A stretch of DNA of 64,000 nt. Source: Laspinema palackyanum D2c (GTDB taxonomy: Bacteria; Cyanobacteriota; Cyanobacteriia; Cyanobacteriales; Laspinemataceae). The notes under the pieces were generated by a model. That model saw only the letters and a list, made by a program, of their open reading frames with translations. It was not told the DNA's origin and made no database searches. Position 1 is the first letter of the stretch. The number at the start of each line of letters is the position of its first letter. This document shows, piece by piece, positions 126 to 63,795 of the stretch. The position numbers and the translations under genes were made by a program. The DNA lies in assembly GCF_025370875.1 (NCBI RefSeq), contig NZ_JAMXFD010000004.1, forward strand, positions 196,777 to 260,776. The letters run 5' to 3'.

Positions 126-1859
126 TTAAAACAGAAAATATCGCTGGGCCAAGGGCAACACTTGTGCCGGTTCACAGGTGAGTAATTGACCATCCGCCCA
201 AACTTGATAGGTTTCTGGATCTACCTCAATATAAGGCAGGGTCTCATTTAATTTCATATCCCGTTTCCCCACCTTGCGCGTGTCCGAAACGGCAATAGCT
301 GGTTTTCGCAAACCTAACTGAGTTGGTATTTCTAACTCCAATGCTGCTTGGGAGACAAATGTAAAAGATGTGGCAGTCCGAGACCCTCCAAAACTGGCAA
401 ACATCGGCTGAGAATGGATCGGTTGCGGAGTCGGAATACTGGCATTGGCATCTCCCATTTGGGCGTAGGCGATCGCCCCCCCTTTGATCACCAGTTCCGG
501 TTTCACCCCAAAAAATGCCGGACGCCACAAGCATAAATCCGCCAGTTTACCTTCTTCAATCGACCCCACATAATTAGAAATCCCGTGGGCAATTGCGGGA
601 TTAATCGTATATTTGGCAATATAACGTCGCGCCCGGAAATTATCCTGTTCTGTTGTACTGGGAATCCCATCTTTGCGGTCATCCGGGGACAAAAACCCGC
701 GCTGTACCTTCATTTTATGGGCGGTTTGCCAAGTGCGAATGATGGTTTCTCCCACTCGTCCCATTGCCTGAGAATCGGAGGAAATCATACTAAACGCCCC
801 GAGGTCATGTAAAATATCCTCGGCAGCAATGGTTTCCCGACGGATGCGGGATTCAGCAAAAGCGACATCTTCGGGGATACTGCGATCGAGGTGATGGCAC
901 ACCATCAGCATATCCAGATGTTCTTCTAAGGTATTTACAGTATAAGGGCGGGTGGGATTGGTGGAAGAGGGGAGGACATTTTTTTGTCCGCAAACCTTGA
1001 TAATATCCGGGGCGTGTCCTCCGCCAGCCCCTTCCGTATGGTAAGTATGAATGGTGCGGTCTTTAAAGGCGGCGATGGTTTGTTCTACAAATCCCGCTTC
1101 ATTCAGGGTATCGGTATGGATGGCAACTTGCACATCATACTCATCGGCAACCGTCAGACAAGTATCGATCGCCGCTGGAGTGGTTCCCCAGTCTTCATGT
1201 AATTTTAATCCCATTGCACCGGCGAGAACCTGTTCCACGAGGGCGCGGGGTCTGCTGCTGTTGCCTTTTCCCATAAATCCGAGATTCACAGGGAAGGCAT
1301 CGGCAGCTTGTAACATCCGGTGGATGTTCCAAGGTCCGGGGGTACAGGTGGTGGCATTCGTTCCCGTAGCGGGTCCGGTTCCCCCGCCTAACATGGTGGT
1401 AATTCCCGAGGCGATCGCCACCTCAATCTGTTGGGGACAAATAAAGTGTATATGGGCATCGATTCCCCCGGCAGTGAGAATCATCCCTTCCCCGGCGATC
1501 GCCTCGGTTCCTGGACCGATAATAATATCAACATGATCTTGGATATAAGGATTTCCCGCCTTACCAATTTTAAATATTTTGCCATCCCGGATTCCCACAT
1601 CGGCTTTAACCACTCCCCACCAATCGAGAATCACCGCATTGGTAATCACTAAATCCACCGCCCCGTTATCATTGGCAATGGGGGATTGTCCCATGCCATC
1701 GCGGATGACTTTTCCCCCGCCAAATTTCACTTCATCGCCGTAGGTGGTAAAGTCTTGTTCAACTTCAATAAATAATTCTGTATCGGCTAACCGAATGCGA
1801 TCGCCCACCGTTGGGCCATAAGTTTCCGCATAAGCGCGGCGGTCCATTTTATAACTCAT
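126..1859 (-). CDS. ureC: Urease alpha subunit (UreC). The six-frame ORF runs to 1904, but homology begins at [20 protein letters not shown], so the start is placed at 1859.
   Basis: Translation carries hallmark urease-alpha motifs ([75 protein letters not shown]). Protein length is about 577 aa. Confidence 0.9.
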
Positions 1860-2120
1860 TGACGTTCCCTCACTCCATTCTCGCCCATCATTTCTGGGTT
1901 CCAATTAGTTTATCCCATTTTAGGGAGAATTAAACCGGCGTTAGTGCTGTTGAGAACAGACGGGAGTAAAACAGCGGAATAAAGCTACCAAAATTCCCAA
2001 CAATCGATGACATCAACCGGGCGATCGAGATGCAGATTTTAGAGTAAACACCCCACACCCTTGCGGCTGGGGGTGTTTGTCAACCTCCGAAAACTGGATT
2101 GGCTATCAGTGCTAATCGGG

Positions 2121-4169
2121 TTAATTCCAGTTCCCAATCAGGGTAAACGCAGACCAAAAATAAGGGTGAGATAGGTTTATCGTTTTTTGTTCCCTCAATT
2201 CCGGGGGTAGGGGAACGGTTTTGCCATTCGATAGAACTAACATCCCATTTTCTATGCGAACCTCTCCCCTTAACAGCGCCAGTTGGGTTTGCCGTAAAGC
2301 TTCGGCTTTCAGTGGTTTTTCCCCTAATTGGGAATAAAATTCACTCATTAATCCCAGAGTTCCTGCATCGCTGACATACCAGAAACTGGCTAAGGATGCC
2401 TTAGCCCCAGAAAGTACAGCTAACCCCGCAAATCCCAACTCAGCCTCTGTATCTCCCACTGCGGTCCGACAGGCACTTAGGGTTAATAGTTCAATGGGAG
2501 GACTCTGGGAGGTATTCCACCCGAGTTCCGTGGCTAAGTCTCGAATTTGATTGAGTCCGACTCGGCTATCAAAAAACGTGATATAAGAGTTATCTAAATT
2601 TCCCCCTTGAAATTCGGCATGGGTTGCTAAATGGATAATTCCAAAGCGTTTTTCCTGGTTAATTTGTCGGAAATTAGCGGCAGTGAATTGTTCATTCAGA
2701 AAGACATTTCCCTTCCAGGGAGCGCTCACAATATTTTGCAATTCAGTCGGCACCGCAGGGAGGGGATTGAGGTCTTGAAAAATAGCAGAACCCATCCCTA
2801 ATACTTCTCGGTTCCGGATATCAGAATAGGTGACATCAGTTAAGCCAAAACTGGGGACTAAAGCAACGGCATATTTTTCTAATAAAAACTGTTCCCCATC
2901 ATGCAAGGCCACCAGGGGAAGGGTTCTCAACCCAGAATCCATTGAAAAAACTAAAGTTTCAATCCCATTGGCTTCCAGTTGTGCTTCCATTGGAGCAATT
3001 AGCGACTGATAAAGTGATTGGGCGATCGGTAAGTAACTTTTACTGTTGAGCCTTCGGGGATTAGTCAGTTCCGATCGCAAGTTTTGCACCTGTTCAAGAA
3101 GCTGTTCCCGCACGACATTGGGTACCGTTTCGCGAACCGCTACATCCGTGGTTCTCTCAATCAGTCCTTGGGCTAAATCCGCCGAAGCCACTAAGTCAGA
3201 ACTGCCCCCCGATACTCGAAAATTCTGGGGAAAAATCATCACCAGTTCTAATTGGTCCGCTAACGCTGAGACATAAATAAATGAACTCTTGTTACCCGTC
3301 GCTTGCCACAAATCATACAAGGTTTGAGCAATATCATCGGGAGTTGCGGTTTCCCCAAATAACTCCACTTCTAAATAATTGCTAAACTCCATTGCCTGAT
3401 ATTCTTCCAACATTTGAACCGCCACCCCAATATCAGCCGCAGCTAACTGAGTTTCATAACCCGGGCGATCAACTTCTTGGTCCGATAGACTACTCAAGGG
3501 CTGTGCTTCTCCCGTTGTGCTGGGCTCACCTTCGAGAATTTGACCCTCTATGGAATTGGTACTTTCAGTTGTGGGGTCGGGTTCTGGATTATTCTCGCTC
3601 ACCGGAGGAGGAATTTCCTCCTCCAGGGGAATCTCTGGATTCTCGGGGATGACAAGCGGGCCCGTGGGTTCGGGGGACTGAATGTTAATCGGTTCTTGGG
3701 TTTGAACGGGAATCGGTGTCAGCACTTCCCCTGGACTGTCAACAGGGATTACTGGGGTATCTCCAGGTGGTGTGTCTGTGGGAGTTTCTGGGGGAGTTTC
3801 TGTGGGAGTTTCTGCGGGAGTTTCTGTGGGAGTTTCTGTGGGAGTTTCTGCGGGAGTTTCTGCGGGAGTTTCTGCGGGAGTTTCTGCGGGAGTTTCTGCG
3901 GGAGTTTCGGTGGGAGTAGGTAGAGGGGTGATGCTTCCTGTGGGTGCGATCGTTGGCGGTGGCGGTAGCGGTTCCTCCGGTAGCGGTTCCTCCGGTAGCG
4001 GTTCCTCTGGTAGCGGTTCCTCTGGTAGCGGTTCCTCTGGTAGCGGTTCCTCTGGTAGGGGTCCCGTGACATCGGACTGGTTTCCCGTCTGGGTGATGGC
4101 AGGATCAGCAGCGATCGCCACCAATGTCATAGCCAGAAACAATTTCATCCATCCCTTAAACAGCTTCAT
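2121..4169 (-). CDS. Secreted CHAT-domain (caspase-like) peptidase. Has an N-terminal signal peptide, a long Pro/Glu/Thr-rich repetitive linker and a C-terminal CHAT domain.
   Basis: Signal peptide MKLFLAMTLVAIAA. Repeats (PEEPL)x7 and ([AT]ETP)x~12. C-terminal region carries the CHAT His/Cys dyad context (IIHLATHAEF ... LLTLSACRTAVGD). Confidence 0.8.
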   Translation of the reverse strand: MKLFKGWMKLFLAMTLVAIAADPAITQTGNQSDVTGPLPEEPLPEEPLPEEPLPEEPLPEEPLPEEPLPPPPTIAPTGSITPLPTPTETPAETPAETPAETPAETPAETPTETPTETPAETPTETPPETPTDTPPGDTPVIPVDSPGEVLTPIPVQTQEPINIQSPEPTGPLVIPENPEIPLEEEIPPPVSENNPEPDPTTESTNSIEGQILEGEPSTTGEAQPLSSLSDQEVDRPGYETQLAAADIGVAVQMLEEYQAMEFSNYLEVELFGETATPDDIAQTLYDLWQATGNKSSFIYVSALADQLELVMIFPQNFRVSGGSSDLVASADLAQGLIERTTDVAVRETVPNVVREQLLEQVQNLRSELTNPRRLNSKSYLPIAQSLYQSLIAPMEAQLEANGIETLVFSMDSGLRTLPLVALHDGEQFLLEKYAVALVPSFGLTDVTYSDIRNREVLGMGSAIFQDLNPLPAVPTELQNIVSAPWKGNVFLNEQFTAANFRQINQEKRFGIIHLATHAEFQGGNLDNSYITFFDSRVGLNQIRDLATELGWNTSQSPPIELLTLSACRTAVGDTEAELGFAGLAVLSGAKASLASFWYVSDAGTLGLMSEFYSQLGEKPLKAEALRQTQLALLRGEVRIENGMLVLSNGKTVPLPPELREQKTINLSHPYFWSAFTLIGNWN
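3780..3912. repeat. In-frame 12-bp tandem repeat (GGGAGTTTCTG[TC]), about 11 units, encoding the ETPA/ETPT repeats of the CHAT protein.
   Basis: Perfect 12-bp periodicity visible in the sequence. Candidate variable-number tandem repeat (VNTR). Confidence 0.85.
3964..4056. repeat. In-frame 15-bp tandem repeat (GGTAGCGGTTCCTC[CT]), about 6 units, encoding the PEEPL repeats of the CHAT protein.
   Basis: Perfect 15-bp periodicity visible in the sequence. Confidence 0.85.
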
Positions 4170-5264: not shown

Positions 5265-5470
5265 TAGTGGCGAAGCTAAACAATAAAATACCCCTTCGAG
5301 GATTGTACCCGTTCTGATCTGCAAAATCACATTTTCTTTTCACTGAACTGAGGACAGTTAGGTTGCCCCTTCATCTTTTAGGGCAATCAGTTTAGTTAAA
5401 AATACTTATTTTTTCTCTCACCTCCGAGCAAAATAGGATTAGGGAACTCCAAAAAATAAAATCACCAAAA

Positions 5471-5535
5471 CGTTCGTAGTGACTCCTTGATTGAGTCATT
5501 TTTAGAGTAACCCCTGAAGGGGTTACTACGAAAAT
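5471..5535. repeat. Composite hairpin element in the MVP upstream region (GTGACTCCTTGATTGAGTCA and GTAGTAACCCCTGAAGGGGTTACTACGAA). Member of the dispersed hairpin-repeat family.
   Basis: Two perfect stem-loops. The outer arms GTAGTAAC/GTTACTAC are shared with copies at 8494, 19190, 27040, 61461 and 62925. Confidence 0.7.
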
Positions 5536-58326: not shown

Positions 58327-59904
58327 ATGGCTGAATTTCCTTGGCTGACTACAATTATCCTGTTTCCGATCGCGGCATCCCTACTCATCCCTGTTATCCC
58401 CGATAAAGATGGGCGCACGGTGCGTTGGTATGCCCTAATCGTCGGACTCATGGACTTTGCCCTCATTGTCTACACCTTCTGTAATCATTACGACCTCAGT
58501 AACCCGAATATCCAGCTTTTTGAAAGCTATTCCTGGGTTCCTGCCTTAGACCTCAACTGGTCAGTCGGGGCCGATGGCTTATCCATGCCCCTGATTATCC
58601 TCACCGGATTTATCACCACCCTGGCAATTTTGGCCTCCTGGCCCGTCACCTTAAAGCCAAAACTCTTTTTCTTCTTGATTTTGGCCATGTATGGCGGACA
58701 GATTGCCGTTTTTGCCGTCCAGGATATGCTCTTGTTCTTCCTGGTATGGGAATTGGAACTGATTCCGGTGTACCTGCTGCTGTCCATTTGGGGCGGTAAA
58801 AAACGCCTCTATGCAGCCACCAAATTTATCCTCTACACCGCAGGCGGTTCCCTGTTTATTCTCCTGGCGGGCCTCGCAATGGCCTTCTACGGCGATACCG
58901 TCACCTTTGATATGCAGTCCCTCGCGGCGAAGGATTACGCCATTAACTTAGAACTGTTGCTCTATGCAGCATTTTTAATTGCCTACGGCGTCAAACTGCC
59001 TATCTTCCCCTTACATACCTGGTTACCCGACGCCCACGGGGAAGCCACCGCCCCAGTGCATATGTTACTCGCCGGAATTCTGCTGAAGATGGGAGGATAC
59101 GCCATCATCCGCATGAATGCCCAAATGTTACCCGATGCTCACGCGGTGTTTGCACCGATGTTAGTCATCCTCGGGGTAGTGAATATCATTTATGCCGCTC
59201 TCACCTCCTTTGCCCAACGCAACCTCAAACGGAAAATTGCCTATTCCTCCATTTCTCACATGGGATTTGTGCTAATTGGGATTGGCTCATTTACCGACCT
59301 AGGGTTAAGCGGTGCTGTCCTGCAAATGGTCTCTCATGGACTGATTGGGGCGAGTTTGTTCTTCATGGTGGGAGCAACTTACGATCGCACCCATACCCTG
59401 ATGTTGGATGAAATGGGCGGCATTGGCAAAAAGATGAAAAAGTCCTTTGCCATGTGGACCACCTGTTCCCTAGCCTCCTTAGCGTTGCCGGGAATGAGTG
59501 GATTTGTGGCTGAATTAATGGTCTTTGTCGGCTTTGCCACCAGCGATGCCTACAGCCTGACATTCCGCGTCGTCGTCGTCTTCTTAGCGGCAGTCGGCGT
59601 CATTCTCACTCCGATTTATCTCCTGTCCATGTTGCGAGAAATGTTATACGGACCGGAAAACAAGGAATTAGTGGAACATGAAGCCCTGATTGATTCCGAA
59701 CCCCGGGAAGTGTTTATCATTGCTTGCCTGTTGGTGCCGATTATTGGGATTGGCTTATATCCCAAGATTCTCACCCAAATCTACGATGCAACCACGGTAC
59801 AGTTAACCGCAAGATTGCGGAACTCAGTACCGACGTTGGCGGAAAATGCCTCGGTTGCCTTAGCCGAACCGATGAAAGCCCCGGTAATTGGGAGTCCTCG
59901 ATAG
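58327..59904 (+). CDS. ndhD: NAD(P)H-quinone oxidoreductase chain 4 / NDH-1 subunit D.
   Basis: 525 aa, polytopic. NuoM/NdhD motifs ([40 protein letters not shown]). Confidence 0.9.
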
Positions 59905-60005: not shown

Positions 60006-61472
60006 ATGACTTCCCAACCCATTCTCCTCTGGTATCGCAACGATTTGCGTGTCCATGATCACGAACCGCTGTATCGCGCCATCCAAACCCATGCGCCGAT
60101 TATCCCGATCTATTGTTTCGACCCCAGACAATTTTCTAAAACTTCTTATGGATTTCCAAAAACCGGCCCATTCCGCGCCCAGTTTTTACTCGAAAGTGTG
60201 GCGAACCTGCGTCAATCCCTGCAAAACTTGGGCAGTAACTTAATTATTAAAATTGGAAAACCTGAATCAATTTTACCGCAAATCGCCCAACAAGTCAATG
60301 CCTCAGCGATTTATTTCCATCAGGAAGTAACAGCGGAAGAAATTGCAGTAGAAACGGCACTGTCTCAAGGGGTTAAACCTCTGAACATTGCGCTCAAATC
60401 CTTCTGGGGACATACTCTATATCATCGCGATCGCCTCCCCTTTGATATTCCCAATATTCCCGAACTGTTCACCCACTTTCGCAAACAAGTGGAAAAAACA
60501 GCTACCCCAGATTCCTGCTTTCCCACTCCCACCGAGTTGCCACCGTTACCGGAAATTGAGACAGGAAAATTACCCAGATTAACAGAATTAGGCGTGGAAA
60601 AAGTTGCGATCGCCTCCAAAGCAGTCCTCCCCTTTACCGGAGGAGAAAGCGCCGGAATTGCGCGATTGCAGGACTATTTTTGGAGTGGCGATCGTCTGCA
60701 AACCTACAAAGAAACCCGCAACGGAATGCTAGGTCCCGATTATTCCTCCAAATTTTCCCCCTGGTTATCCTTGGGTTGCCTCTCCCCCCGCTACATTTAC
60801 CAACAAGTCCAAGACTACGAAACCCAACGCCTCAAAAACGACTCCACCTATTGGCTCATTTTCGAGTTACTTTGGCGAGATTACTTCCGGTTCATCTGTG
60901 CCAAACATGGCAACGCCATCTTCCGTCAATCCGGATTACAAGGAGTAAGCATTCCCTGGGAAGAAGACTGGCAAAAGTTCACCCTCTGGCAACAAGGAAA
61001 AACCGGCTTTCCTCTTGTAGATGCCAATATGCGGGAACTCGCTGCCACCGGATTCATGTCCAATCGAGGCAGACAAAACGTCGCCAGTTTCCTAACTAAA
61101 AACCTCGGCATCAATTGGCAGATGGGGGCGGAATGGTTTGAGTCTCTGCTGATTGATTATGATGTTTGTAGCAATTGGGGAAATTGGAACTACACTGCTG
61201 GAGTGGGAAATGATGCCCGGGGATTTAGATTTTTTAATATTATCAAACAATCCAAAGATTATGACCCCGACGGCAAGTATGTAAAGCATTGGTTACCGGA
61301 ATTGGCAGCAGTTCCGGCAGCTAAAGTGCATGAACCTGGGAAATTATTGCCAGTGGAACAGCAGCGGTTCGGAGTAAAAATTGGAGTAGATTATCCCCAT
61401 CCTATCGTTGATTTATTTGAGTCAGCAAAAGCCAATGAGCAGGTCTACAAATCCGCTTTCAAACGTTCGTAG
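60006..61472 (+). CDS. Cryptochrome DASH (photolyase family).
   Basis: LLWYRNDLRVHDHEPL at the N-terminus. FAD-binding C-terminal motifs (TGFPLVDANMREL, FMSNRGRQNVASFL, WGNWNYTAGVGND). The TAG stop is supplied by a hairpin-repeat unit. Confidence 0.9.
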   Translation: MTSQPILLWYRNDLRVHDHEPLYRAIQTHAPIIPIYCFDPRQFSKTSYGFPKTGPFRAQFLLESVANLRQSLQNLGSNLIIKIGKPESILPQIAQQVNASAIYFHQEVTAEEIAVETALSQGVKPLNIALKSFWGHTLYHRDRLPFDIPNIPELFTHFRKQVEKTATPDSCFPTPTELPPLPEIETGKLPRLTELGVEKVAIASKAVLPFTGGESAGIARLQDYFWSGDRLQTYKETRNGMLGPDYSSKFSPWLSLGCLSPRYIYQQVQDYETQRLKNDSTYWLIFELLWRDYFRFICAKHGNAIFRQSGLQGVSIPWEEDWQKFTLWQQGKTGFPLVDANMRELAATGFMSNRGRQNVASFLTKNLGINWQMGAEWFESLLIDYDVCSNWGNWNYTAGVGNDARGFRFFNIIKQSKDYDPDGKYVKHWLPELAAVPAAKVHEPGKLLPVEQQRFGVKIGVDYPHPIVDLFESAKANEQVYKSAFKRS

Positions 61473-61539
61473 TAACGACTTCAGTCGTTTCCGGATGTAG
61501 GGAGAGACGGGAATTTTCTCGTCTCTCCCATTGCTCTCA
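61461..61539. repeat. Hairpin-family unit (TTCGTAGTAACGACTTCAGTCGTTTCC) overlapping the cry stop codon, then a second hairpin (GGGAGAGACG-GGAATTTTCT-CGTCTCTCCC). Candidate bidirectional terminator between the convergent Cry-DASH and LepB-like genes.
   Basis: Read directly. Confidence 0.7.
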
Positions 61540-61570: not shown

Positions 61571-62623
61571 TTATTGAATCGCCCCTTGCCTATCCGGTGG
61601 CCAAAATATTTTGTTGGCTTTTCCCACAATATTTTCTTTAGGGACAAATCCCCAGTAGTGGCTATCATAGCTATTATTGCGGTTATCTCCTAACACTAAA
61701 TAATTATTTTCAGGAATCGTAACGGGTCCGTACTGATAGGTAGGAGGTTCAGCAATGTAAGGTTCTTCCAAAGGTTGGTTATTAATCTTAACCTGTCCAT
61801 TACTGACTTCCACTGTTTCTCCGGGTAAACCGATAAGTCGTTTAATAAAATCGTCTTTGAAATTTTGTTCTTGGAGAGTTTGAGTGGGTGAAAAAATGAT
61901 AACATCCCCCCGTTCAGGTGCATTGAATTTATAAGTTATTTTGTCAATAATTAGTCGATCATCTATTTGCAAGGTAGGTATCATAGCTCCCGAGGGTATA
62001 TAGCGAGTTTCAATGACAGACCTTTGGAGAGAAAGCATTGCGAATGATACAACCAGAGAAGCAATAACGAATAAACCAATGAGTAAGGGTGCTTTCTCTT
62101 GAGAAATGTCTTTTTTCTTGTTCATCAATTGATAAACATGGAAAGCGGCCCCAAATCGCAATATTACCACAAATATTTTAGGTGCAAGTACGGCAACGAC
62201 TATCGTAGCGATAGCAAAAACAAGTCCTTCACCTATTTTTTTAATGTAAAAATGACCCAACCCTGGAAACAATAGGGAAAGGAAAACTGCTAACCACGGG
62301 TCTTTTTTTGATTTTCTTAAATTTTCAAATTGTGGGCTATTACTCTTTCTTGCCGAGGCATGAGCATCAAAGAGATTCCAGAGAGTTAAACCCAAAATTA
62401 TCAGTAAGGCAAGCAGGGTCAACAGCCAATTAATAGTAGGCAGTAATAATGACCACAGAAACAGTCCGAAACTTCCCAGCCAAACTGCTATAATTATCAG
62501 TCCTCGGAATAGATTACCTGCGTAAATTTGCCCAGCACCTGGGATAATTCGTGATAAAATTACCGCAATCCAAGGTTGCTTTTCTGCTTGAGATGATGAG
62601 GAACTTGTAGAAGATAGAGTCAT
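61571..62623 (-). CDS. Signal peptidase I (S26) homolog with the catalytic Ser replaced by Ala, and a ~200-aa N-terminal multi-TM extension containing a duplicated GxGxxY motif.
   Basis: Box B reads IPSGAMIPTL, where canonical is SGSMxPTL with the nucleophile immediately before Met. Box D Lys is retained (KRLIGLPGE). Box E is retained (GDNRNNSYDSHYWGFVP). N-terminal repeats PWIAVILSRIIPGAGQIYAGNLFRGL and PWLAVFLSLLFPGLGHFYIKKIGEGL. Confidence 0.75.
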   Translation of the reverse strand: MTLSSTSSSSSQAEKQPWIAVILSRIIPGAGQIYAGNLFRGLIIIAVWLGSFGLFLWSLLLPTINWLLTLLALLIILGLTLWNLFDAHASARKSNSPQFENLRKSKKDPWLAVFLSLLFPGLGHFYIKKIGEGLVFAIATIVVAVLAPKIFVVILRFGAAFHVYQLMNKKKDISQEKAPLLIGLFVIASLVVSFAMLSLQRSVIETRYIPSGAMIPTLQIDDRLIIDKITYKFNAPERGDVIIFSPTQTLQEQNFKDDFIKRLIGLPGETVEVSNGQVKINNQPLEEPYIAEPPTYQYGPVTIPENNYLVLGDNRNNSYDSHYWGFVPKENIVGKANKIFWPPDRQGAIQ

Positions 62624-62924
62624 GGTTTTTTGACAATAATTAGGGATTCATCAGAAACAAGTCGATACCCTTATTGCGTGAAATAATTGTATCGATGTGA
62701 AAGCCAATTAAAGGGGAGATCAAAGGGGTAGATGTTATTAAAAGGAACCTCGGAAAGGACTAAAGTCCTGACAGTGGCGTTGATAAGCCCGATGCCAGAT
62801 CAGCCCTGTAGCAAGTTACCCTCTAAGAACCTGGGAACAGACTGCCCGATCGCCCTACTTTTAATTTAACCACAAATCTGCCTTTGAAACCGAGTATCCC
62901 GGTGAATCCCTTGAGGGGTTCCAT

Positions 62925-63045
62925 GAAGATGACTCCTGAAGGAGTCACTACGAACGTTTGTAGTAACCCCTTGAGGGGTTGCCTGAAGATGACTCCTGAA
63001 GGAGTCCCTACGAACGTTTGTTTGTAGTAACCCCATGTACAGAAA
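62925..63045. repeat. Two tandem ~52-bp composite hairpin units (GTAGTAACCCCTTGAGGGGTTGCCTGAAGATGACTCCTGAAGGAGTCACTACGAACG).
   Basis: Direct repeat units at about 62947 and 62999, each with two stem-loops. Same family as 5471-5535. Confidence 0.8.
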
Positions 63046-63105
63046 TAGTCCAATTGATTGAGATGCGCGATAAACTGTTATAAAATAACGCTTTATTTTA
63101 CGCCG

Positions 63106-63795
63106 ATGACTGCTATTTCTGTGCTGAATACTCCCCCTTTAGAAAGTGGCGATCGCCTCACTCGTGAGGAGTTCGAGCATCGCTACGATGTTGCACCGGA
63201 TATTAAAAAAGCTGAATTAGTTGAAGGAGTTGTTTTTGTGCCGTCCCCCGTTCGTGCGAATCGGCATGGTAACCCTCATGCAATTATGATGGCTTGGTTA
63301 GGCACTTATTGGATGGCAACACCGGGGGTAGGGTTCTATGACAATGCCACGGTTCGTCTGGATGAAGAGAATGAACCTCAACCGGATGCTTTATTACGCC
63401 TTGAACCGGCAGTGGGTGGCAATTCTTGGATTAGTGAGGATGACTATATTGAAGGGTCACCGGAATTGATTGTGGAAATTGCTGCTTCTAGTGCCAGTTA
63501 TGACTTGAATGATAAGCTGAATGCCTATCAACGGAACGGGGTTCAGGAATATATTGTCTGGCAAATTTATGAAAATAAATTGGATTGGTTTATTTTAGAA
63601 GAAGGTCGATATGTTTCCCTAGTGCCGGATGAACAAGGAATTTTGCGATCGCAGGTATTTCCGGGTCTCTGGTTGTCTGTAGAAGCCTTACAACAAAAAG
63701 AGGGTGCGACTCTCAATGCTATTTTGCAGCAAGGGTTACAAACAGCAGAACATCAAGAATTTGTGCAGCGTTTAGGGCAGTTTTCAGGGGAGTGA
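63106..63795 (+). CDS. Uma2-family (DUF820) putative endonuclease.
   Basis: LTREEFEHRYDVAPDIKKAELVEGVVFVPSPVRANRHGNPHAIMMAW ... PDALLRLEP ... PELIVEIAASS. The ORF track starts at 63058, so the conserved region suggests the Met at 63106. Confidence 0.75.
   Translation: MTAISVLNTPPLESGDRLTREEFEHRYDVAPDIKKAELVEGVVFVPSPVRANRHGNPHAIMMAWLGTYWMATPGVGFYDNATVRLDEENEPQPDALLRLEPAVGGNSWISEDDYIEGSPELIVEIAASSASYDLNDKLNAYQRNGVQEYIVWQIYENKLDWFILEEGRYVSLVPDEQGILRSQVFPGLWLSVEALQQKEGATLNAILQQGLQTAEHQEFVQRLGQFSGE

Follow-up and report, generated by a model that had tools for sequence, protein, structure and literature searches.

The 64,000-nucleotide stretch of Laspinema palackyanum D2c analysed here (contig NZ_JAMXFD010000004.1, positions 196,777 to 260,776; hereafter the window) contains a gene named signal peptidase I whose product carries alanine in place of the catalytic serine and belongs to a cyanobacterial clade in which the great majority of members have exactly one of four active-site residues replaced. 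By analogy with the S90A and K145A mutants of the E. coli enzyme, the protein is very probably not a Ser/Lys peptidase, and we consider it reasonably likely to be a non-catalytic paralogue of the signal peptidase LepB, with an S26 domain that would bind peptides without cutting them. The name assigned by the NCBI Prokaryotic Genome Annotation Pipeline (PGAP), 'signal peptidase I', over-annotates the gene. The gene and the parts of its S26 domain are as follows, in window coordinates.

61571..62623, minus strand: whole gene, encoding a 350-amino-acid S26-like membrane protein, with an ATG start and the stop codon at 61571-61573 (open reading frame list)
61574..62014, minus strand: S26 (signal peptidase I-like) beta domain, residues 204-350 (Pfam, NCBIfam, Foldseek)
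61970..62002, minus strand: box B, YIPSGAMIPTL, residues 208-218 (phmmer alignment to 1B12, 1T7D and 1KN9)
61817..61855, minus strand: box D, DDFIKRLIGLPGE, residues 257-269 (phmmer alignment, codon reading)
61640..61690, minus strand: box E, GDNRNNSYDSHYWGFVP, residues 312-328 (phmmer alignment, family columns)

An NCBI entry, 'signal peptidase I [Laspinema palackyanum]', matches the predicted product at 100% identity, and the N-terminus of the product lines up with a Met in 95 of 120 homologues. Pfam Peptidase_S26 (PF10502) covers residues 187-341 (E 8e-47), and the signal peptidase I equivalog model TIGR02227 of NCBIfam scores 145.9 bits against a cut-off of 47, which accounts for the database name. 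The AlphaFold2 model, built on a 108-sequence alignment, reaches a mean predicted local distance difference test score (pLDDT) of 88.8, and Foldseek matches it with a probability of 1.00 to SipA of S. pyogenes, SpsB of S. aureus and signal peptidase I of E. coli, with 1T7D, 4WVJ and 1B12 among the structures matched. Enzymes of the S26 family depend on a Ser nucleophile and a Lys base, both of which are indispensable; in E. coli LepB, the S90A and K145A mutants are inactive, and S88A and S278A are weakened several hundred-fold. In the phmmer alignments to the E. coli structures, 'ipsgamiptl' of the query stands opposite 'ipsgsmmptl', and 'dfikrliglpge' opposite 'dyikravglpgd'. The nucleophile Ser90 thus corresponds to Ala213 (codon GCT, plus-strand positions 61985-61987) and the general base Lys145 to Lys261, which lies within DFIKRLIGLPGE (codon AAA, 61841-61843). 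Ser211 occupies the place of Ser88, which supplies the oxyanion-hole hydroxyl, and Ser318 that of Ser278 within an intact box E, GDNRNNSYDSHYWG. The protein therefore combines the S26 fold and recognizable boxes B to E, including the box D Lys and the supporting Ser88 and Ser278 equivalents, with the lack of a Ser before the Met of box B. Because M214, P216, T217 and L218 are invariant across all homologues and fix the register, there is no alignment ambiguity at position 213, and a sequencing error is unlikely since a separate protein, the closest homologue (P0002, 79% identity), likewise reads PSGAM.

The extent of the replacement becomes apparent from the 120 best database matches, all cyanobacterial, about 350 amino acids long and of the same architecture, which we refer to as clade A. 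The four positions equivalent to E. coli S88, S90, K145 and S278 were scored in these 120 sequences, with the following result.

Position 211 (E. coli Ser88): Ser in 99, Ala in 21
Position 213 (E. coli Ser90): Ala in 61, Ser in 51, Thr in 3, Gly in 3, Asn in 2
Position 261 (E. coli Lys145): Lys in 92, other residues in 28
Position 318 (E. coli Ser278): Ser in 112, Ala in 8
Replacements per member: none in 6, exactly one in 102, two in 12, more than two in 0

The commonest combinations at positions 211/213/261/318 are SAKS (55 members), ASKS (20), Ser-Ser-nonLys-Ser (about 17), SSKA (5) and STKS (3), and the substitutes for Lys261 include Ser, Gln, Phe, Cys, Ala, His, Tyr, Met, Glu, Asp, Gly and Asn. 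Even within the Laspinema group (P0001 to P0006), positions 211/213/261 read SAK, SAK, SSF, SSK, SSC and SSC, respectively. The replacement states are scattered over the tree, and parsimony requires no fewer than 26 changes at position 213 and 17 each at positions 261 and 211. When the sites were simulated independently under a two-state model fitted on the neighbour-joining tree (3000 runs), 54 +/- 9 members carried a single replacement, with a maximum of 84 in any run, as compared with the 102 observed; a three-site version of the simulation gave the same outcome. The excess of members with one replacement is therefore not the product of chance or shared ancestry.

The corresponding positions in related proteins behave differently. 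Canonical LepBs retrieved from the same database by the same method (the best 120 matches of the LepB of Geitlerinema sp. BBD, locus L037; 184-227 amino acids) read SSKS in 120 of 120 cases, and 66 of 68 S26-only LepB genes from cyanobacterial genome loci are intact at all four positions. A sister group bearing the same N-terminal module, clade B, comprises members from Leptolyngbyaceae, Kastovskya, Spirulina and Candidatus Sericytochromatia (e.g., P0151, P0164, L011 and L012) and is intact at all four positions in 29 of 29 sequences. Clade B proteins share the domain architecture of the L. palackyanum protein and 33-42% identity with it over the full length, and differ from clade A in that three residues ahead of the Lys are deleted (columns 256-258) and in a box D of the form VKRVIGxPGQ; judging from their residues, they are presumably true peptidases. 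Given that clade B carries the module together with an intact site, the module is not tied to inactivity. Against these controls, the degenerate active site is particular to clade A, and it recurs often in a further, remoter set of module-bearing proteins, part of which come from outside the cyanobacteria. Collectively, degeneration of the site is a general property neither of S26 proteins in cyanobacteria, nor of the module, nor of sequences obtained from metagenomes.

These results bear out a sequence-only reading of the same gene, which had placed Ala at the nucleophile position, considered the general-base Lys and box E intact, and proposed an inactive, possibly substrate-binding pseudoenzyme: the four catalytic residues are complete in 6 of 120 members of clade A against 120 of 120 canonical LepBs, and the fold and pocket residues are conserved. 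That reading had also allowed for a recent pseudogene among orthologs that all read SGSM, which is not what we found, Ala being the commonest residue at position 213 (61 of 120). Its question of whether the Ala itself is conserved receives a divided answer: Ala is a majority-type state, yet it is not conserved as such, and the residue replaced varies among the four positions.

The survey of genome loci yielded further observations on the range of these proteins. A planctomycetotal metagenome-assembled genome (L033, CP070830.1) encodes two TM2-like modules fused to an S26 domain with 33% identity to the L. palackyanum protein, in which Ser is missing from both box B positions and the Lys is kept, and the Candidatus Sericytochromatia metagenome-assembled genome (L012) encodes a copy of the same architecture with 40% identity and an intact set. 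The architecture thus extends beyond oxygenic cyanobacteria. Within the cyanobacteria, clade A copies are present in Nostocales genomes too, such as those of Calothrix and Desmonostoc (L004, L005, L010). Separately, tandem pairs of canonical, S26-only LepBs occur in L018, L070, L075, L077 and L081, each with Ser in one copy and Thr in the other at the E. coli Ser88 position (IPSxSM versus IPTGSM), and all Microcoleus LepBs retrieved have Thr there.

We compared per-column entropies of clade A and canonical LepB for positions 200-348 (149 positions of the S26 domain). Conservation of the domain in clade A equals or exceeds that in canonical LepB almost everywhere, and the columns that are invariant in canonical LepB and relaxed in clade A are 204, 213, 243, 261, 339 and 341. 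Boxes B to E are conserved in clade A, as are I209, M214, L218 and I260, which we take from the E. coli structure to be S1/S3 pocket residues. Across 108 sequences, 35 columns are invariant, 16 of them within the N-terminal 177 residues. Comparison with the orthologue of Laspinema sp. D1 (78% identity; L001, 6001-7062) gave a ratio of nonsynonymous to synonymous substitution rates (dN/dS) of 0.36 overall, 0.21 for the S26 domain and 0.45 for the N-terminal part, which indicates purifying selection; the gene is intact. Between the two strains, codon 213 differs at one base (GCT, Ala, in L. palackyanum; TCT, Ser, in sp. D1) and codon 261 at all three (AAA, Lys; TTC, Phe). For a family with 35 invariant columns, the gene evolves unusually fast.

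We interpret this pattern as follows. As 95% of its members lack an active-site residue, clade A does not appear to be selected for Ser/Lys catalysis, and simple decay is disfavoured because the other three residues are kept in 85% of the members and the groove is conserved. This combination argues for a function that uses a near-intact active-site region, most plausibly peptide binding. In the L. palackyanum protein, the fold of the S26 domain is preserved, as are the groove for the substrate, including the S1/S3 pockets, and most residues that would form hydrogen bonds in the active site; lacking a Ser nucleophile at position 213, the protein should form no acyl-enzyme. The selected function would then most likely be to hold peptide segments of the Ala-X-Ala type uncut at the outer face of the membrane, candidate ligands being the cleavage regions of exported precursors, or similar segments. 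The TM2-like N-terminal module would be a conserved membrane accessory, which probably positions the S26 domain in the membrane or couples it there.

The dominance of single replacements admits two explanations. The first, which we find possible though rather doubtful, is that catalytic death is itself the selected trait: the protein would be a natural substrate trap, in which a fully active site is disfavoured and the other three residues are preserved, so that lineages shift between single knock-outs of the Ser90, Ser88, Lys145 and Ser278 equivalents. Such a trap could act on the cleavage regions of signal peptides as a receptor or holdase. At the plasma membrane or the thylakoid membrane of cyanobacteria, it might in this way retard particular precursors, sort them or pass them on, perhaps in connection with the TM2-like module. 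The second, neutral explanation also fits: any three of the four residues might suffice for binding, with activity being neutral, and one-replacement states would dominate by number. Under both models, the selected function is not proteolysis.

Several of our own results weigh against a non-catalytic, peptide-binding role. Six of the 120 clade A members keep all four residues, among them P0004, which is 77% identical to the L. palackyanum protein, and some members of the clade may thus be active enzymes. Ser211 is kept in 68 of the 69 members with a residue other than Ser at position 213 and might conceivably act as an alternative nucleophile. The dN/dS of the gene is 3.6 times that of the adjacent cry-DASH gene (0.10) and about 8 times that of ndhD (0.04) at comparable dS, which could reflect partly relaxed constraint instead of a well-defined binding function. 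In addition, a canonical LepB from Laspinema itself was not among the 120 matches listed for a canonical LepB query, nor was Laspinema among the genomes listed by the scan of cyanobacterial genomes, and all-against-all BLAST of 22 loci revealed no neighbour family, apart from the gene itself, in at least 3 of them.

Proteins of known function help to place a peptide-binding S26 domain. The resemblance to LepB (MEROPS S26A; E. coli LepB, cyanobacterial LepB1/LepB2) comprises the S26 fold, boxes B to E and a transmembrane anchor immediately before the domain; the S26 domain is 50-60% identical to those of canonical cyanobacterial LepBs, and Lys261, Ser318, the GDNRNNSxDSHxWG motif and the S1/S3 pocket-equivalent residues are kept. 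Unlike LepB, the protein has Ala213 instead of the nucleophile Ser and a 177-residue duplicated multi-pass module before the anchor, whereas canonical forms of 184-227 amino acids have one short N-terminal anchor region; the intact catalytic set of all 120 canonical sequences is likewise reduced to 6 of 120 in clade A.

The closest functional parallel may be SipA (LepA) of S. pyogenes, a pilus assembly factor (PDB 4N31, 4K8W). SipA retains the S26 fold and a conserved peptide-binding cleft, has Asp48 and Gly85 in place of the catalytic Ser and Lys, shows no peptidase activity and plays an essential non-enzymatic role (PMC4049620). The L. palackyanum protein shares with it the fold, a disabled catalytic apparatus and the peptide cleft, and Foldseek aligns the model to 4N31 with a TM-score of 0.78-0.81 normalised to the target. 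The two nevertheless differ: only the Ser is replaced in the L. palackyanum protein, with Lys261 kept, whereas SipA lacks both Ser and Lys, and SipA is a Firmicutes protein with a single transmembrane segment encoded in a sortase/pilus gene cluster, whereas the protein described here carries the TM2-like module and has no pilus or sortase neighbours. It is also much closer in sequence to LepBs (phmmer E 1e-19) than to SipA (3e-5). The best reading, drawn by analogy, is that the protein works like SipA without being a member of the SipA family. No catalytically dead LepB of cyanobacteria was present among the literature search results examined.

A related, though unlikely, alternative is that the S26 domain serves as an interaction surface and does not bind substrates by itself. 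As a subunit or regulator without catalytic activity, the protein would then partner an active LepB or else the machinery of Sec, YidC or Tat, in the manner of paralogue pairs such as mitochondrial Imp1/Imp2. This would agree with the presence of a canonical LepB alongside clade A proteins. In Argonema antarcticum, a clade A protein (P0029) and a canonical LepB of 200 amino acids (P0411) occur in one species, and the two kinds co-occur at the genus level in Stenomitos, Nodosilinea, Phormidesmis and Waterburya. On a Pseudanabaena contig (L014, metagenome-assembled, around positions 1064-3370), a canonical, S26-only Ser-Ser-Lys LepB immediately precedes, in the same orientation, a full-length copy combining the TM2-like module with an S26 domain in which the Lys is replaced by His. 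On the basis of this species- and genus-level co-occurrence, the gene appears to be an extra paralogue beside canonical LepB, a point that speaks for the peptide-binding reading as well. The N-terminal module, moreover, is conserved as much as the S26 domain. However, L014 is the only one of the 22 loci with linkage to lepB, no neighbour family recurs, and the conserved surface takes in the substrate pockets and not just a putative interface. The photolyase and ndhD neighbours are shared with Laspinema sp. D1 only, those in Leptolyngbya NIES-3755 and Ancylothrix being different. An operon partner had been pursued as a lead and was rejected, as no neighbour family recurred in the 22 loci.

It is conceivable, but improbable, that clade A proteins are peptidases with a re-wired site, using, for example, Ser211 and Lys261 when position 213 is Ala, and Ser213 when position 211 is Ala. 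The pattern of retained residues is compatible with this: 119 of 120 members have one or both Ser residues of the P-S-x-S pair, Ala211 is combined with a non-Ser residue at 213 in only 1 of 21, and Lys261 is kept in 92 of 120. However, 28 of 120 members lack Lys261 and no compensating basic residue is found elsewhere in the S26 domain: no column of the domain gains Lys, Arg or His in the Lys-less class, nor Ser, Thr or Cys in the Ser-less class, and there is therefore no sign of a migrated catalytic residue. In canonical LepBs, position 213 is Ser in 188 of 188 sequences, whereas position 211 is freely Ser or Thr, which argues that position 211 does not provide their nucleophile, and E. coli S90A is inactive despite the presence of Ser88. 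Finally, the four classes of replacement cannot all be accounted for by one alternative mechanism.

The part of the protein that precedes the S26 domain is divided as follows.

62354..62581, minus strand: repeat 1, residues 15-90 (internal alignment, AlphaFold2, DUF5683 match)
62114..62305, minus strand: repeat 2, residues 107-170 (internal alignment, AlphaFold2, DUF6677 and sub-threshold TM2 matches)
62015..62092, minus strand: anchor transmembrane helix, residues 178-203 (AlphaFold2 helix, loop Lys and Arg counts)

The two copies of a PW-AV-LS-PGxGxxY motif pointed out by the sequence-only reading belong to repeats that align over residues 15-90 and 107-170 with 32% identity and share the pattern K-x-P-W-[IL]-A-V-x-L-S-x3-P-G-x-G-x2-Y; the N-terminal 177 residues are a genuine internal duplication. 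In the AlphaFold2 model (pLDDT >85 for these helices), repeat 1 consists of a kinked helix (17-34) bearing PW-AV-LS-PGxGQxY and a transmembrane hairpin (38-60/66-93) and ends in NLFDAH, and repeat 2 of a kinked helix (109-126) bearing PW-AV-LS-PGxGHxY and a hairpin (130-146/149-168), ending in YHxY. The PGxG kinks split the short helices into 17-26/30-34 and 109-118/122-126. Invariant residues are P17, W18, A20, G29, G31, Q32, G41 and D86 in repeat 1 and D108, W110, G121 and Y126 in repeat 2. The anchor helix 178-203 follows an NKKKDISQEK loop, which is predicted to be cytoplasmic. Family-wide counts of Lys and Arg assign the N-terminus and loops 35-40, 86-108, 127-129 and 167-177 to the positive, cytoplasmic side and loops 61-65 and 147-148 to the opposite side. 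This distribution agrees with a predicted topology in which the membrane is spanned by four helices together with the anchor, the kinked helices form re-entrant segments on the cytoplasmic side, and the S26 domain lies outside, probably facing the periplasm or the thylakoid lumen. The 'four or more' transmembrane segments proposed earlier are thereby refined to two copies of a kinked, re-entrant helix with a transmembrane hairpin, followed by the anchor.

The suggested likeness to TM2-type domains holds in part. DUF5683 at residues 15-53 (32.6 bits, cut-off 26.7) and DUF6677 at residues 111-194 (29.7 bits, cut-off 24.3) pass their thresholds, whereas TM2 at residues 105-142 stays below its own in the L. 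palackyanum protein (19.1 bits, cut-off 27.9), although it matches 43 of 108 family members at E<0.01. With these families (PF05154, PF18935 and PF20382 for TM2, DUF5683 and DUF6677, respectively) the module shares a short helix ending in G-x-G-[HQ]-x-[FY] that is followed by further transmembrane helices; unlike in them, it is tandemly duplicated and fused to an S26 domain. The N-terminal 177 residues alone, used as a homologue query in a word-indexed search, gave 5 matches, and no solved-structure relative of the module was found. Our literature searches, which covered S26 pseudoenzymes and the DUF5683, DUF6677 and TM2 families, brought up neither a description of a fusion between TM2 and S26 nor any work on what DUF5683 or DUF6677 does. 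At the other end of the protein, the last beta strand (residues 337-338, around nucleotides 61610-61615) sets module-bearing proteins systematically apart from canonical ones. Clades A and B have Lys or Gln at residue 338, where S26-only LepBs have Val or Phe; residue 337 is Thr or Ser in clade A or Tyr in clade B as opposed to Val or Ile in canonical LepBs. The two residues may be where the domain touches the N-terminal module or the membrane.

The degree of conservation of the module raises the question of whether it, and not the S26 domain, is the working part, acting as a small channel, transporter or membrane enzyme with the dead S26 domain as an extracytoplasmic sensor or gate. The conserved polar residues Q32, D86, H88, H124, H162 and Y164 could be its working residues, the 16 invariant N-terminal positions include polar residues at the cytoplasmic ends of helices, and the re-entrant-like kinked helices with PGxG[QH]xY are without a counterpart among solved structures. 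We nonetheless regard such a role as quite improbable, since the module is also present on the apparently active proteins of clade B, with an intact site in all 29, which suggests that the module serves a peptidase-type domain and not the reverse; in addition, DUF5683, DUF6677 and TM2 are not known to have a function. That the gene is merely a recently inactivated, decaying copy of an active enzyme, without a selected function, is hardly credible: a single base change from GCT to TCT would restore the Ser, the dN/dS between Laspinema strains (0.36) exceeds that of the neighbours (0.04-0.10) and P0004 has the full set of four residues, but the 350-codon frame is intact, PSGAM recurs in the 79%-identical homologue with Ala as the majority state in the clade, exactly one replacement is present in 85% of members with no build-up of several, and the S26 domain is conserved as well as or better than in canonical LepB.

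The surroundings of the gene in the window can be described briefly. On the plus strand, ndhD (58327-59904) is followed by a cry-DASH/photolyase gene (60006-61472), which is convergent to the S26-like gene, and on the other side a divergent gene at 63058-63795 (plus strand) has a Uma2-like translation; from its sequence, the product looks like a Uma2-family (putative restriction endonuclease-like) protein. The Uma2 family is highly expanded in cyanobacteria, and the adjacency of the two genes is not kept beside homologues. A phmmer search of all six-frame open reading frames found no second S26-like frame in the 64-kb window, and a scan for promoters and terminators produced nothing exceeding shuffle expectation. 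Between the convergent cry-DASH and S26-like genes, positions 61500-61529 form a near-perfect 14-nucleotide inverted repeat with a 2-nucleotide gap between its arms (GGGAGAGACGGGAA and TTCTCGTCTCTCCC), a hairpin that may serve both genes as a bidirectional terminator; for lack of a subsequent T-run, the terminator scan passed over it. In the intergenic region upstream of the S26-like gene, segment 62905-63021 holds two tandem copies of a 57-nucleotide repeat at 60-nucleotide spacing, 93% identical and each with an internal hairpin (GACTCCTGAAGGAGTC). The core of this repeat (23-25 nucleotides) recurs inverted at 61460-61484, past the other end of the S26-like gene, and again at 5467-5489, which brings the copies in the window to 4, where chance would give 0. 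The element has the look of a small cyanobacterial repeat of the dispersed type, and a short open reading frame at 62823-63053 (minus strand) is probably just the 57-nucleotide repeat in translation.

Non-catalytic S26 proteins are known from SipA; the L. palackyanum protein is probably a further one, and what is new about it is an architecture that, to our knowledge, has not been described before, together with an evolutionary signature out of the ordinary. One practical consequence is that the database and PGAP naming of such genes as signal peptidase I inflates the number of active signal peptidases counted in filamentous cyanobacteria. Clade A further represents a large and clean natural case of a pseudoenzyme, in which four catalytic positions are singly dispensable and rarely lost together, and its strictly conserved sister clades provide built-in controls for the study of pseudoenzyme evolution. 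If the protein indeed binds peptides without cutting them, it would be a candidate factor in the holding or sorting of precursors between the plasma membrane and the thylakoid, and would offer a first functional handle on TM2, DUF5683 and DUF6677.

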